Below, in pieces: positions 46,111-49,318 of a DNA stretch of 64,000 nt (the stretch's first letter is position 1; the number at the start of each line of letters is the position of its first letter). Where the stretch lies: NCBI GenBank assembly GCA_043812655.1, contig JBDRLW010000046.1, positions 8,452 through 72,451 on the forward strand. Direction: 5' to 3'. Made by a program: the position numbers and the translations under genes. This stretch comes from a bacterium (lineage in GTDB: Bacteria; Margulisbacteria; WOR-1; O2-12-FULL-45-9; XYB2-FULL-48-7). The notes under the pieces are model-generated. The model saw only the letters and a list, made by a program, of their open reading frames with translations. It was not told where the DNA came from and made no database searches.

Positions 46111-46129
46111 ACCCGCCGCGCAGGCGGGT
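46111..46129. repeat. Short GC-rich hairpin after groEL
   Basis: ACCCGCC-GCGCA-GGCGGGT; no U-tract, so REP-like rather than a clear terminator. Confidence 0.45.
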
Positions 46130-46157
46130 TGACAAATACAGCGACCAGCTGTAAAAT
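46129..46157 (+). promoter_or_regulatory. sigma70-type promoter of nusA-infB operon
   Basis: TTGACA, 17 nt, TAAAAT. Confidence 0.8.
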
Positions 46158-46167
46158 AAGTTCAAGT

Positions 46168-46197
46168 CGCAAAAGTGGGGTTTCTCCCACTTTTGCG
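46168..46197 (+). promoter_or_regulatory. Leader hairpin of nusA operon (rimP-leader-like attenuator)
   Basis: 12-bp stem CGCAAAAGTGGG / CCCACTTTTGCG; AGTGGG..CCCACT hairpins are typical upstream of rimP-nusA-infB. Confidence 0.65.
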
Positions 46198-46227
46198 CTT
46201 ATATGGGGTTTAGCGTGGAGGATTATT

Positions 46228-47337
46228 ATGAAAATTGAACATTTTAATGAAATGCTTGAGGAAATCCAGCGGGAACGGGGGATATCAAAAGATGGCCTGG
46301 TTTCCGCGATCAAAGCCTCTCTTTTATCGGCGGCGAAGAAGCGGTTTAAAGAAGAAGACCAGCTGGAATGCCGGATTTCCGATGATGGGGAAGTGAAAAT
46401 TTATCTTTTGGCTGAAGAAGGCGAAAAAGATGTTACTCCAGATGATTTTGGACGTTTTGCCGCCCAAACAGCAAAGCAGGTAATTATCCAACGGTTGCGT
46501 GAAGCGGAAAAAGAGGAATCATTCGAAGAATATTCAAAAAAAGCGGGAGAAGTTGTAACCGGGATCGTCCAACGCCGCGAGTTTGGCGGTTACCTGGTTA
46601 ATTTAGGCCGCTTAGAGACGATCTTACCGATATCGGAGCAGATCCCGGGGGAAATCCTGCGGGAAAGGGACCGGGTTAAATTTTATCTGGTCGAGACGAA
46701 AAGGACGCCAAAGGGACCAATGGCGCTCATTTCCAGATCGCATCCCAACTTAATTAAAAAACTTTTTGAAATGGAAATCCCGGAAATTAAAGAAGGCATT
46801 ATTGAAATTAAAGGGATCGTCAGGGAAGCGGGGAAAAGAAGCAAAGTAGCGATCTCTTCCAATGATCCTAACGTTGGGGCGGTTGGGACGTGTGTCGGCC
46901 ATATGGGGCAGAGGATCCAGAATATTATCCGCGAAATGGGGCCGGAGCGGATCGACATTGTGGAATGGAGCGACAACCCTAAAACCTTTATTAGCAATGC
47001 CTTAAGCCCGGCCAAAGTCCAAAAAATTGAATTAAATGAAGAGGAAAAAATCGCTAAGGTCTCGGTTTCCGATAAAGACCTTTCTCTAGCCATCGGAAAA
47101 GAGGGCCAGAATGTCCGCTTGGCGGTAAAACTTACAGGGTGGAAGATCGATCTTGGCTCCGAAGCGAAACCAGCCGAAAGTGAAGAAAAAAAATCAAATC
47201 TTAAAGTCCACGAATTAGCCAAGGAACTCGATCTGACCAGCAGCGAGCTGATCGCTAAGCTTCGGGAGATGGGTTTCCAGGTTAAGGCGGCCAATTCGAC
47301 CGTACCGGAAGAAGCAGTCAAACAACTGCGGGGGTAA
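46228..47337 (+). CDS. nusA: Transcription factor NusA with C-terminal IF2-N-like domain
   Basis: FGRFAAQTAKQVIIQ, S1 and KH domains, SLAIGKEGQNVRLA; SD GGAGG before ATG 46228; tail KVHELAKELDLTSSELI. Confidence 0.95.
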   Translation: MKIEHFNEMLEEIQRERGISKDGLVSAIKASLLSAAKKRFKEEDQLECRISDDGEVKIYLLAEEGEKDVTPDDFGRFAAQTAKQVIIQRLREAEKEESFEEYSKKAGEVVTGIVQRREFGGYLVNLGRLETILPISEQIPGEILRERDRVKFYLVETKRTPKGPMALISRSHPNLIKKLFEMEIPEIKEGIIEIKGIVREAGKRSKVAISSNDPNVGAVGTCVGHMGQRIQNIIREMGPERIDIVEWSDNPKTFISNALSPAKVQKIELNEEEKIAKVSVSDKDLSLAIGKEGQNVRLAVKLTGWKIDLGSEAKPAESEEKKSNLKVHELAKELDLTSSELIAKLREMGFQVKAANSTVPEEAVKQLRG

Positions 47338-47338
47338 A

Positions 47339-49318
47339 ATGGGTAAAATAAAAGTCGGTGATTTAGCAAAAGAGCTAGGCGTTGCCAACAAAGATCTATT
47401 GGCCGCCTTAAAAGATCTCGGCGTCGCCGCTAAAACTTCGGCTTCCTCGATCGATGAAGAATCCGCTAAAGTTGTAACCGAGCTCCTAAAGCCAAAAGCT
47501 AAAATTGAAACACCTAAACCTGCGCCTATTCCTGAACCTATACCTGTTCCTGTGCCTACGCCTATTCCCGTTTCAACCGGTAAAGAATTAACGATCGAAA
47601 CAGAAGATATTTCGGTCAAAGAACTATCCGAAAAACTTAAAGCTAAAGCTTCGGAAGTGATCAAAGAGCTAATGAAAAAGGGGATCATGGTGACGATGAA
47701 CCAGCGGGTGGCGGCAGAAGTGGCCAAAGAAGTTGCCAGCGCGCTTGGCAAAGAATTAGTTATTAAAGAAAAAGTTGCCCAAGCCTCAAAAGGCTTAATG
47801 AAGCCGATGACCGGGTCGCTTCGTCCGCCGATCGTGACCGTCATGGGCCACGTTGACCATGGAAAAACAAAATTACTTGACGCGATCAGATCGACTAAAG
47901 TGGCCGAAAGCGAAGCGGGGGGCATTACCCAGCATATCGGTGCTTACCAAGTTATGGTGCAAGATCGAAAGGTCACATTTTTAGATACGCCAGGCCACGA
48001 AGCTTTTACTGCTTTGCGAGCCAGGGGTGCAAAGGTTACCGATATTGTTATTTTGGTCGTCGCCGCTGATGACGGAGTGAAACCGCAAACGATCGAAGCG
48101 GTCAACCACGCTAAAGCGGCCGGTGTACCAATTATTGTCGCGATCAATAAGATCGATAAGCCAGAAGCCAATCCTGATCGGGTCAAAACCCAGTTAGCTG
48201 AGCTTGGCCTGCAAGCCGAAGACTGGGGCGGAAAGACCGTGATGGTCCCTGTTTCGGCTAAAGCCAAGACGGGAATTGAAGAGCTCCTCGAAATGGTCCT
48301 TCTAGTCGCCGACCTTGGTGAATTAAAGGCCGATGCTAATGCTAACCCGCAAGGGATAGTGATCGAATCGCGGCTTGATAAAGGGCGCGGGCCGGTAGCT
48401 AGCGTACTCGTGCAAAATGGAACTTTAAAAATTGGGGATGTCTTTACTTGCGGCGCGACTTTTGGCAAAGTCAGAGCCTTACTTAGCGATAAAAATGCCC
48501 GGCTGGAAAAAGCGCCGCCATCAATGCCGGTCGAAGTTTTAGGTTTTATGTCTGTGCCAAACCCTGGAGATGTTTTAACCGTAGTACCAACTGAAAAAGA
48601 AGCCAGAACACTTGCTGAAAACAATAAAATTGCCGATGGGCATACCCAGCGCGGGAAGGTCGTTTCGCTTGAAGATTTCTCAAAACACGTTAAAGAAGGC
48701 GAAGGGAAAGACCTAAATCTTGTCCTCAAAGCTGATGTCCAAGGTTCGTTGAGCGCGATCGTCCAATCATTGACCGACCTAAAAATGGGGAACATTGGCG
48801 TTCATATTATCCACAGTGCTGTCGGTTTGATCAATGAATCTGACATTATGCTGGCCAAAGCTTCTGGCGCCATTTTAGTTGGGTTTAATGTTGGCTATGA
48901 AGGCGGGGCAGAGTCAAAAGGTTCTGACGAAGGAGTTGAGGTCAGGTTATATAATGTTATCTACAAATTAATCGATGACGTTAAACTGGCAATGGAAGGT
49001 TTGCTTGAGCCGGAATTTGAAGAAGTTATCACCGGCCATGCCGAAGTCCGCCAGATGTTCTCTTTCTCCAAGGTTGGCTCGATCGCCGGTTGTTTTGTCA
49101 CCGATGGTAAAATGACAAGAGGGACCGGACTAAGGATCTTAAGGGATAAGAAGAAGATCTACGAGGGCAAACTTGAATCGCTCAAACGATTTAAAGAAGA
49201 CGTAAAAAGCGTGGAGCAAAATTATGAATGCGGTATCGCTATCCCCGGTTATTCTGATTTCCAGAAAGGGGATATTATCGAGAACTTTGAAGTCAGAGAG
49301 AAAAAACGCCAAGGATGA
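47339..49318 (+). CDS. infB: Translation initiation factor IF-2
   Basis: MGHVDHGKT, DTPGHEAF, NKID; two IF2-N repeats with a Pro-rich linker. Confidence 0.98.
   Translation: MGKIKVGDLAKELGVANKDLLAALKDLGVAAKTSASSIDEESAKVVTELLKPKAKIETPKPAPIPEPIPVPVPTPIPVSTGKELTIETEDISVKELSEKLKAKASEVIKELMKKGIMVTMNQRVAAEVAKEVASALGKELVIKEKVAQASKGLMKPMTGSLRPPIVTVMGHVDHGKTKLLDAIRSTKVAESEAGGITQHIGAYQVMVQDRKVTFLDTPGHEAFTALRARGAKVTDIVILVVAADDGVKPQTIEAVNHAKAAGVPIIVAINKIDKPEANPDRVKTQLAELGLQAEDWGGKTVMVPVSAKAKTGIEELLEMVLLVADLGELKADANANPQGIVIESRLDKGRGPVASVLVQNGTLKIGDVFTCGATFGKVRALLSDKNARLEKAPPSMPVEVLGFMSVPNPGDVLTVVPTEKEARTLAENNKIADGHTQRGKVVSLEDFSKHVKEGEGKDLNLVLKADVQGSLSAIVQSLTDLKMGNIGVHIIHSAVGLINESDIMLAKASGAILVGFNVGYEGGAESKGSDEGVEVRLYNVIYKLIDDVKLAMEGLLEPEFEEVITGHAEVRQMFSFSKVGSIAGCFVTDGKMTRGTGLRILRDKKKIYEGKLESLKRFKEDVKSVEQNYECGIAIPGYSDFQKGDIIENFEVREKKRQG

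Follow-up and report, generated by a model that had tools for sequence, protein, structure and literature searches.

The NusA protein encoded in the window (the whole stretch of DNA analysed, 64,000 nucleotides) ends in a small IF2_N domain, hereafter T, that recurs across the phylum Margulisbacteria. T, an additional and conserved copy of the IF2 N-terminal adaptor, probably links RNA polymerase to the machinery that starts protein synthesis. The computations made here show what kind of domain T is, which subtype and fold it has, how far it is conserved and constrained, and where it occurs; the features concerned are collected in Table 1. The source assembly is 1.6 Mb in size and 93% complete. 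A search of sequencing runs returned one DNA run containing 7% of the words; no RNA run was listed.

Table 1. Features of the nusA-infB region, with positions in the window.
Feature	Position	Strand	Basis or detail
Sigma-70-like promoter of nusA	46129..46157	+	TTGACA, 17 nt, TAAAAT; 11/12 matches
Leader hairpin, 13 bp, terminator/attenuator-like	46168..46197	+	MFE -25.1 kcal/mol, z -3.1
nusA, 369 aa + stop: NusA_N, S1, KH1, KH2, linker, T	46228..47337	+	Pfam, TIGR01953, AF2
KH2, last NusA core domain, aa 277-309	47056..47154	+	KH_NusA_C match; ends in WKIDL motif
Disordered linker, aa 310-322	47155..47193	+	pLDDT <50 at aa 313-323
T, C-terminal IF2_N domain of NusA, N1 subtype, aa 323-368 (46 residues)	47194..47331	+	Pfam, fold, dN/dS
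GGGGG, Shine-Dalgarno-like run for infB	47330..47334	+	Within last nusA codons, 5-9 nt 5' of ATG 47339
infB (IF2, 659 aa)	47339..49318	+	TIGR00487, 800.7 bits
IF2 repeat N1, aa 1-50	47339..47488	+	IF2_N, 50.6 bits
IF2 repeat N2, just 5' of the G domain	47600..47755	+	IF2_N, 48.0 bits

NusA matched TIGR01953 at 338.6 bits (cut-off 253.4), with the Pfam domains NusA_N, S1, KH_5, and KH_NusA_C in canonical order and a mean pLDDT of 86.4 for the whole AF2 model. The gene likely starts at the ATG at 46228, which is preceded by GGAGG and gives the 369 aa protein; it stops at TAA (47335-47337). An alternative start in the list of open reading frames (TTG, 46129) was rejected, being the -35 hexamer of the promoter-like site. 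The promoter scan found this one site, against 0.3 expected, directly after the groEL stop and hairpin. Relatives also have the core of the leader hairpin, AAGTGGG..CCCACTTTT, 5' of nusA, in many cases with a run of thymines after it; the hairpin had no match in Rfam. With groEL upstream, nusA is followed by infB without an intervening gene, and the infB ATG lies one base past the nusA stop in a different frame. Across the phylum the two genes abut or overlap (median gap 0). Neither RimP_N nor YlxR was matched anywhere in the 93% complete assembly. An earlier note on this DNA had described both the absence of rimP and ylxR and the abutting start of infB, and was correct on each. No match to an HhH/AR tail was observed on the NusA of the window at E values up to 1, nor among 82 NusA of Margulisbacteria at E up to 0.001, and these did not score as members of the AR type.

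T scored 45.0 bits against Pfam IF2_N (PF04760) within whole NusA and 49.3 bits alone (cut-off 25.3), and a genome-wide scan returned exactly three IF2_N matches: T itself (47.8 bits) and both IF2 repeats. T is 38% identical to the first of these repeats over 42 aa. The HMM scan that the earlier note had proposed thus identifies the tail as it had guessed, and its parallel between the tail and the start of infB holds as well. The model of T is beta-alpha-alpha-beta-alpha, the IF2_N fold, with a pLDDT of 77; values of 75-82 over the predicted models indicate a confidently folded domain. The model fit 4b44 with a TMq of 0.81 and an rmsd of 1.1 A over 46 columns, and 4b3x with a Z of 6.5 and an rmsd of 1.7 A over 48 residues. 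The T profile matched aa 3-49 of Thermus thermophilus IF2 in six sets of solved chains (E about 1e-8). With E values up to 1 allowed, the profile did not retrieve the N1 chain of E. coli from the solved structures; because it misses this chain and finds the Thermus N domain, E. coli N1 is a distant model for T. The ESM Atlas gave no usable match for T, and whole NusA returned ordinary NusA clusters only.

After IF2, the next structural matches of T were small DNA-binding domains of the MerR/Xis/RacA/Par type (Z 4.3-6.1), and arrays of similar repeats match many HTH families. Together with the binding of rRNA by the N2 repeat (PMC9192638), these matches would fit a small nucleic-acid-binding domain that gives NusA an extra contact with nascent RNA or DNA, unlinked to IF2 or the ribosome. 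We consider such a role improbable: Z values in this range are usual for common small folds, the net charge of T averages only +0.33, and its signature is specific to N1 rather than generic.

That signature was consistent among the T domains of the phylum. An N1 HMM scored above an N2 HMM in 39 of 39 T domains (mean 42.8 vs 11.2 bits). T shares with N1 the charged positions K6, K12, K33, and K/R48, which N2 does not have, and is without the basic positions typical of N2. Column 17, the lysine of the loop between helix 1 and helix 2, holds a basic residue in 62% of N2 and in only 38% of T, and holds none in the family of the window. In the class of the window, an N1 profile from outside phyla scored T at 63.0 bits, compared with 50.2 and 48.3 bits for the resident IF2 N1. 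T has neither the N2 signature (11.2 bits with the N2 profile of the phylum) nor the position before the G domain, being on NusA. Judged by these signatures, T is of the N1 subtype and not of the G-proximal N2 subtype.

IF2 itself had kept both N1 and N2 in 73 of the 80 regions sampled, with T or without it; three of the seven exceptions were regions shortened by our own extraction. The window follows this pattern, and infB keeps two IF2_N repeats of its own, as the earlier note had stated. Because IF2 retains N1 and N2 irrespective of T, T is an extra copy, and a shifted boundary between nusA and infB was rejected as its source. Relocation of T to another gene in genomes without it was likewise rejected for the class of the window, where all 27 genomes checked (families f3, f5, f7, f8, and f10-f13) had exactly two IF2_N matches.

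The resident N1 bears on another possible role for T, that of a docking platform for IF2: T would pair with IF2 N1, like with like, replacing the missing AR1 and bringing IF2 to the transcribing polymerase. The NusA of this phylum does lack AR domains, nusA lies next to infB in tight translational packing (median gap 0), and in E. coli NusA and IF2 make contact (PMC12297416). Such a heterodimer is nonetheless quite improbable. One genome (G132, locus L011) has T while its IF2 has lost N1, its congeners retaining both; lineages without T still keep N1; and no divergence of N1 following duplication was detected with the outside N1 profile, which scored it alike in genomes with and without T (41.5 vs 42.2 bits).

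Sampling of 82 NusA genes from 43 Margulisbacteria families found T in 39 of them, spread over 20 families and several classes; 33 of the 82 lay above the Pfam IF2_N gathering cut-off. In other phyla, whose loci were collected with a full-length NusA alignment, T was found in none of 79 NusA, a sample that did not include Cyanobacteriota, Vampirovibrionia, or Sericytochromatia. Apparent tail matches at seven of the other-phyla loci were rejected, as they came either from HhH tails or from the IF2 N1 encoded by the following gene. HhH tails were seen on NusA at the Acidobacteriota and Eisenbacteria loci L092 and L155. The dN/dS of T was about 0.12, close to that of the NusA core (0.10), and that of the linker was 0.72; by this measure T is kept by purifying selection. 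The survey of related genomes and the dN/dS calculation that the earlier note had called for therefore bear out a tail that is under constraint and, as far as sampled, specific to the lineage.

The earlier note had also allowed for a relic of a local duplication or deletion, or for misassembly at the nusA-infB junction. A homologous N1 coding stretch does directly adjoin T, and T is patchy in its occurrence within the phylum, as a neutral relic or an artefact would predict. Misassembly is excluded because the same architecture is conserved in 38 other genomes of the phylum. A neutral relic is scarcely credible: T appears old and widely distributed in the phylum, its dN/dS is core-like, its fold is confidently predicted, and T domains cluster together instead of each grouping with the N1 of its genome.

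In a FastTree of the domains, N2 split from N1 and T with a support of 0.994, and a single clade held 36 of 39 T (0.77). An AU test on a quick tree (treekit) gave no grounds to reject a single clade of all 39 T (p 0.935). When N1 domains from other phyla were added, the T clade was no longer resolved, and T was closer to the N1 of its own phylum in only 16 of 39 cases. Reconstruction of gain and loss on the NusA core tree gave 16 changes. These data fit a single ancient gain of T followed by many losses. In such a history T would have arisen by duplication of an N1-type module, the 5' end of the adjacent infB being the obvious candidate for its source, and would be old within Margulisbacteria. 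At least about 15 losses are counted, and T must therefore be dispensable.

As for function, our tentative preference, held at somewhat less than even confidence, is that NusA-T is a flexible tether or docking adaptor to the translation machinery, preferably on the 30S shoulder; all of the binding steps are ones that we infer. NusA bound to RNA polymerase would gain the binding specificity of the IF2 N-terminal adaptor, and the elongation complex would thereby be linked to the translation start machinery. The trans docking site of T would be helix h16 of the 30S shoulder or its surroundings, the place occupied by the IF2_N-fold domains of IF2. NusA would bridge RNA polymerase and the lead ribosome, and the shoulder site would be used in turn by NusA-T and by IF2. 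A trans tether is supported by the linker, which is disordered, nearly unconstrained in sequence (32% mean identity within the family), and 13 to about 185 aa long across the phylum.

The premise of the earlier note that IF2-N contributes to ribosome association stands in part. The N2 repeat of Pseudomonas IF2 is seen at high resolution on h16 of the 30S shoulder, and Thermus IF2 has a lone N domain, with an N1-like sequence, that is reported to interact with 30S and to fit N2 at 1 A rmsd (PMC9192638 for both); because of the Thermus report, T could bind 30S as well. The premise does not extend to every repeat: T is N1 in 39 of 39 cases, and Domain I of E. coli IF2, which contains N1, binds NusA and shows no ribosome-like state of its own in the one in vivo study of an IF2 with both N1 and N2 (PMC12297416). 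This counts against the tether, as does the N2 subtype of the h16 binder seen at high resolution, whose typical basic positions T lacks. The dispensability of T also speaks against it. The coupling of transcription and translation suggested by the earlier note is the most plausible role for T.

The main rival is that T is a built-in mimic of IF2 N1, acting on the core of NusA, either in cis or from one molecule to another, at the site of IF2 N1. As a pseudo-ligand it would gate IF2 recruitment to the elongation complex or compete with it, comparable to the masking of KH1 by AR2 in E. coli NusA. A fusion of NusA to a copy of the N1 module is what would be expected if fused partners interact, the uniform N1 subtype of T agrees, and the tether of about 13 aa in the family of the window is short enough for docking in cis. 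Further support comes from E. coli, where direct contact of NusA with IF2 Domain I (N1 plus two strands) was shown by pull-down, by cross-links at three positions, and by the failure of NusA without AR1-AR2 to bind (PMC12297416). This need for AR1-AR2 counts against a mimic in Margulisbacteria, whose NusA had no HhH/AR match. The E. coli N1 is also distant from T (not retrieved at E up to 1, compared with 1e-8 for Thermus), linker length varies more than tenfold, and no NusA core residue follows the occurrence of T in the two halves of the phylum alike (the best consistent difference in frequency was 0.33-0.36). We regard the mimic as possible, if on the unlikely side. Complex predictions with T as partner of NusA KH1-KH2 and of IF2 aa 1-83, run without controls, scored 0.00 and 0.00, which speaks neither for nor against any of these partners.

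A more far-reaching and rather unlikely proposal is that NusA-T is a natural fusion revealing a NusA/IF2-N1 partnership that is ancient and general, not confined to E. coli. T would hold the site of IF2 on the 30S shoulder or on NusA and hand it over to IF2, and the polymerase would deliver the small subunit to the nascent start site, amounting to transcription-directed initiation by an IF2 mimic.

These readings address the open question of how transcription and translation are coupled in bacteria. The binding of the IF2 N-terminal adaptor to NusA in E. coli was found only in 2025, and its authors asked whether it is general (PMC12297416). In a distant uncultured phylum, an N1-type adaptor has been welded to NusA and retained under selection. 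The view that NusA and the IF2 N1 module form one functional unit gains independent support from evolution in this way. Our literature search found no paper on a NusA with IF2_N architecture. NusA with and without the 46-residue domain would make a compact construct for asking what canonical N1 domains bind in most bacteria.

The closest solved relative of T is the N domain of Thermus thermophilus IF2 (4b3x, 4b44, 4kjz, 3j4j, 5lmv), with 31-34% identity, an rmsd of 1.0-1.7 A, an E of about 1e-8, and the same N1-like sequence signature. It differs in being the sole IF2_N repeat of its IF2, adjoining the G domain, and in being reported on 30S, whereas T is on NusA. The acidic HhH repeats AR1 and AR2 of E. 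coli NusA, which serve partner binding and self-regulation, resemble T as a lineage-specific C-terminal accessory module on a flexible tether, but their fold is unrelated. The Pseudomonas aeruginosa IF2 N2 on h16 of 16S rRNA (7uiu) shares the fold (TMq 0.69) and the trait of a small tethered domain anchoring a factor on the 30S shoulder (PMC9192638); it is of the N2 subtype, to which T is a poor match. Domain I (N1) of E. coli IF2-alpha, described by Metelev and Johansson (2025), involves the same two players, a conserved nusA-infB pair, and a proposed connection of transcription to translation initiation (PMC12297416). There the module lies inside IF2 and binds NusA in trans via KH2 and AR1; in Margulisbacteria the N1 copy is covalent on NusA, AR is absent, and IF2 retains its N1. 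Finally, NusA of Mycoplasma pneumoniae carries a lineage-specific tail of its own, a proline-rich C-terminal extension that reaches 30S in the expressome while the N terminus holds RNA polymerase (bioRxiv 10.1101/2020.02.28.970111); that tail is disordered, whereas T is a folded domain apparently borrowed from IF2.

The window's NusA ends in an IF2_N domain (Pfam PF04760), as the earlier note had proposed from the sequence alone; this tail is a real, conserved and constrained domain of the N1 subtype. In the Pfam scan (curated IF2_N cut-off 25.3 bits), NusA_N, S1, KH_5 and KH_NusA_C were followed by IF2_N at aa 323-368 with 45.0 bits, and the tail by itself reached 49.3 bits. NCBIfam identified the proteins as NusA (TIGR01953, 338.6 bits) and IF2 (TIGR00487, 800.7 bits). 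Exactly three IF2_N matches were found in the whole assembly: one is the NusA tail, and the others are the two repeats that IF2, as also claimed, keeps for itself (N1, at its N terminus, and N2, just before the G domain). The tail is 38% identical to IF2 repeat 1 over 42 residues.

Median dN/dS across 12 genes of the window's family was 0.12 in the tail domain, 0.10 in the core (NusA_N to KH2) and 0.72 in the intervening disordered linker (aa 310-322); these values are rough, with dS > 1 and only 36-55 of 66 pairs usable per region. That the tail is a neutral relic has almost no probability in our estimation. The AlphaFold2 model of NusA (38 rows) had a mean pLDDT of 86.4, with 75-82 in the tail domain and <50 at aa 313-323 of the linker; modelled by itself, the domain folded as beta-alpha-alpha-beta-alpha (pLDDT 77). 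Searched against solved chains, its profile matched Thermus thermophilus IF2 aa 3-49 (E about 1e-8), and the E. coli N1 chain gave no match at E up to 1. Foldseek placed 4b44 first (TMq 0.81, rmsd 1.1 Å, E 0.056 for this small domain) and also recovered the 30S-bound Pseudomonas N2 (7uiu, TMq 0.69). In VIA-align the best match was 4b3x (Z 6.5); small DNA-binding domains came next at Z 4-6, values that the program itself describes as common. A generic nucleic-acid-binding role for the tail seems improbable.

Features of the nusA-infB locus in the window
Feature	Position	Strand	Details
Gene order		+	groES-groEL, nusA, infB, rbfA, DHH-family gene, truB, further genes
Promoter-like site of nusA	from 46129, within 46129-46227	+	TTGACA, 17 nt, TAAAAT; 11/12 matches
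Leader hairpin	within 46129-46227		13 bp; downstream of nusA's own promoter-like site
nusA	46228-47337	+	369 aa; ATG 46228 preceded by GGAGG; TAA 47335-47337
IF2_N domain of NusA	47194-47331	+	aa 323-368
Shine-Dalgarno-like run for infB	47330-47334	+	GGGGG, 5-9 nt 5' of ATG 47339; within last nusA codons
infB	ATG 47339	+	different frame from nusA

The long open reading frame first listed for nusA began at TTG 46129. This start was rejected: it is the -35 hexamer of the promoter-like site, and NusA_N matched only from residue 39 of the frame. Because of that match and the ATG behind GGAGG, the shorter gene was adopted. The leader hairpin had no match to an Rfam family. In two families, most relatives have its core, AAGTGGG..CCCACTTTT, in front of nusA, and a T run often follows. 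The hairpin resembles a terminator or attenuator of the leader, perhaps serving NusA autoregulation.

The 1-nt spacing and frame change between the nusA stop and infB, noted earlier, were borne out. Throughout the phylum the two genes are tightly packed, overlapping by 4 nt or abutting in most genomes (67 loci); the median gap was 0 both with the tail domain (32 loci) and without it (35 loci), a rough figure, as start codons were picked by a simple rule. Together with the Shine-Dalgarno-like run, this packing points to translational coupling. In every sampled locus with enough DNA, infB followed nusA. The usual flanks of nusA, genes for RimP_N and YlxR proteins, were without a match anywhere in the assembly (1.6 Mb, 46 contigs, 93% complete), in agreement with the reported absence of rimP and ylxR.

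A shifted nusA-infB gene boundary was rejected, since IF2 keeps both repeats with or without the tail domain, which is thus an extra copy. IF2 had N1 at its very N terminus and N2 before the G domain in 73 of 80 sampled regions, whether or not NusA carried the tail; the seven exceptions comprised three regions shortened by extraction, two broken reading frames and two real losses of N1. In the window's class, the families that lack the tail (f3, f5, f7, f8, f10-f13) comprise 27 genomes, each with exactly two IF2_N matches, so the domain has not been relocated elsewhere. At one locus (L011, genome G132) IF2 lacks N1, yet NusA has the tail; the congeners G129 and G130 keep N1. At another (L019, G106) both are lost. 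Pairing of the tail with IF2 N1 is weakened by G132, and we regard it as highly doubtful.

A search with the tail region returned 28 proteins, all NusA with PF04760. Those with names were assigned to Candidatus Margulisbacteria, Margulisiibacteriota or WOR-1; the one exception, under the name Sulfotelmatobacter (tail identity 80%), is probably a binning error. Of the phylum's 146 genomes, 129 yielded a NusA, and nusA-infB regions were taken from 81 of these (11 loci of the window's family plus 70 chosen regions), a non-random sample covering every family with a usable contig. This survey of the architecture in related genomes found the tail domain in 39 of 82 NusA with a phylum-trained profile, in 38 with a tails-only profile (best score among 1600 shuffled tails, 8.0 bits) and in 34 with Pfam IF2_N at E up to 0.001, 33 of them above the cut-off. 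Within the window's class 12 families were sampled and four had it (f1, f2, f6, f9); it also occurred in 16 of 31 sampled families from other classes, one of them named Marinamargulisbacteria. NusA proteins without it end in a short, charged, low-complexity tail. A short conserved helix motif of LSLAEK / LSIVEKIK type, sometimes present twice, follows KH2 in the linkers of loci L050-L085; it occurs in other classes with or without the tail domain and is absent from the window's class.

Of 80 NusA loci drawn from a species-level genome collection, the single WOR-1 locus carried the domain, and it was absent from all 79 loci of other phyla (Bacillota, Acidobacteriota, Actinomycetota, Patescibacteria, Nitrospirota, Chloroflexota, Armatimonadota and others; the neighbouring cyanobacteria fell outside every sample). 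Two apparent outside matches were discarded as HhH tails: NusA of L092 (Acidobacteriota) and L155 (Candidatus Eisenbacteria) has a single HhH-type tail after KH2, followed in L092 by a long Gly/Ser/Pro-rich repeat. A profile search limited to longer proteins gave 95 hits, in which the NusA proteins with names were of Margulis type or from an unnamed 'bacterium' and the rest were IF2. In an exhaustive library, 6759 proteins matched the profile at E up to 0.001. Among thirty hits chosen from the top 150, with the domain not N-terminal, there were fusions of IF2_N-like domains with TIR, caspase, NYN RNase, protein kinase, cold-shock or methylase modules, and arrays; occurrence on so many module types suggests that this fold is an adaptor for targeting that has been reused widely, defence-like proteins included. 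Fusions of domains close to the NusA tail domain (P0054, P0050, P0056, P0126, P0058, P0169, P0130, P0087, P0030, P0034, P0096) include Ser/Thr kinase, KH and giant methylase-like partners, and arrays of 3-4 repeats.

Class profiles scored the tail at 42.8 bits on N1 versus 11.2 bits on N2, N1 being higher in 39/39, and the tail has N1-specific charged positions not shared by N2. In a FastTree built from 185 domains, N2 separated from N1 plus the tails (support 0.994), with 36 of 39 tails in one clade (0.77) and three divergent ones in a second. The AU test did not reject a single tail clade (p 0.935), the constrained tree being even better than the quick free search. On the NusA core tree, presence of the tail needs at least 16 changes, versus 22-33 in 200 shuffles; the distribution is structured but labile, and a single origin would therefore entail many losses. 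The tails are no nearer to N1 of their own phylum than to N1 from elsewhere (16/39), and their clade lost its resolution once N1 sequences of other phyla were included. Within the window's class the tail resembles a canonical N1 more (63.0 bits) than the N1 of the resident IF2 does (about 50 bits).

We found no description of the architecture in literature on NusA with IF2_N, on Margulisbacteria or on the C-terminal extension, supplements aside. A 2026 preprint reports a correlation between the lengths of the NusA tail and of the IF2 extension, and its NusA passages do not mention an IF2_N domain on NusA (10.64898/2026.02.08.704698). A study of the E. coli proteins found direct binding of IF2 Domain I to NusA; in its AlphaFold3 model, N1 and two further strands contact KH2 and AR1 of NusA, and deletion of AR1-AR2 abolishes the binding. 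Its authors regard the generality of the contact as unsettled (PMC12297416). In the main rival to the reading that we favour, the tail would mimic IF2 N1, acting on NusA in cis or in trans; this is possible but on the whole unlikely. The one set of in vivo data for an N1 domain speaks for it, and the absence of AR domains from Margulisbacteria NusA weakens it. We tentatively favour, at somewhat under an even chance, a flexible tether that would act in trans on the translation machinery, at the site used by IF2_N-fold domains. Three points speak for this: the Thermus N domain is the tail's closest characterised relative, the linker has the behaviour of an entropic tether, and in an expressome the KH domains of NusA adjoin the 30S shoulder. 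In known systems, Thermus IF2 is described as interacting with the 30S through its single N domain, whose sequence is N1-like, and Pseudomonas IF2 as using its N2 repeat to bind h16 at the 30S shoulder (PMC9192638); the KH domains of Mycoplasma NusA are placed at the entry site for mRNA, and the protein's own C-terminal extension on 30S proteins (bioRxiv 10.1101/2020.02.28.970111).
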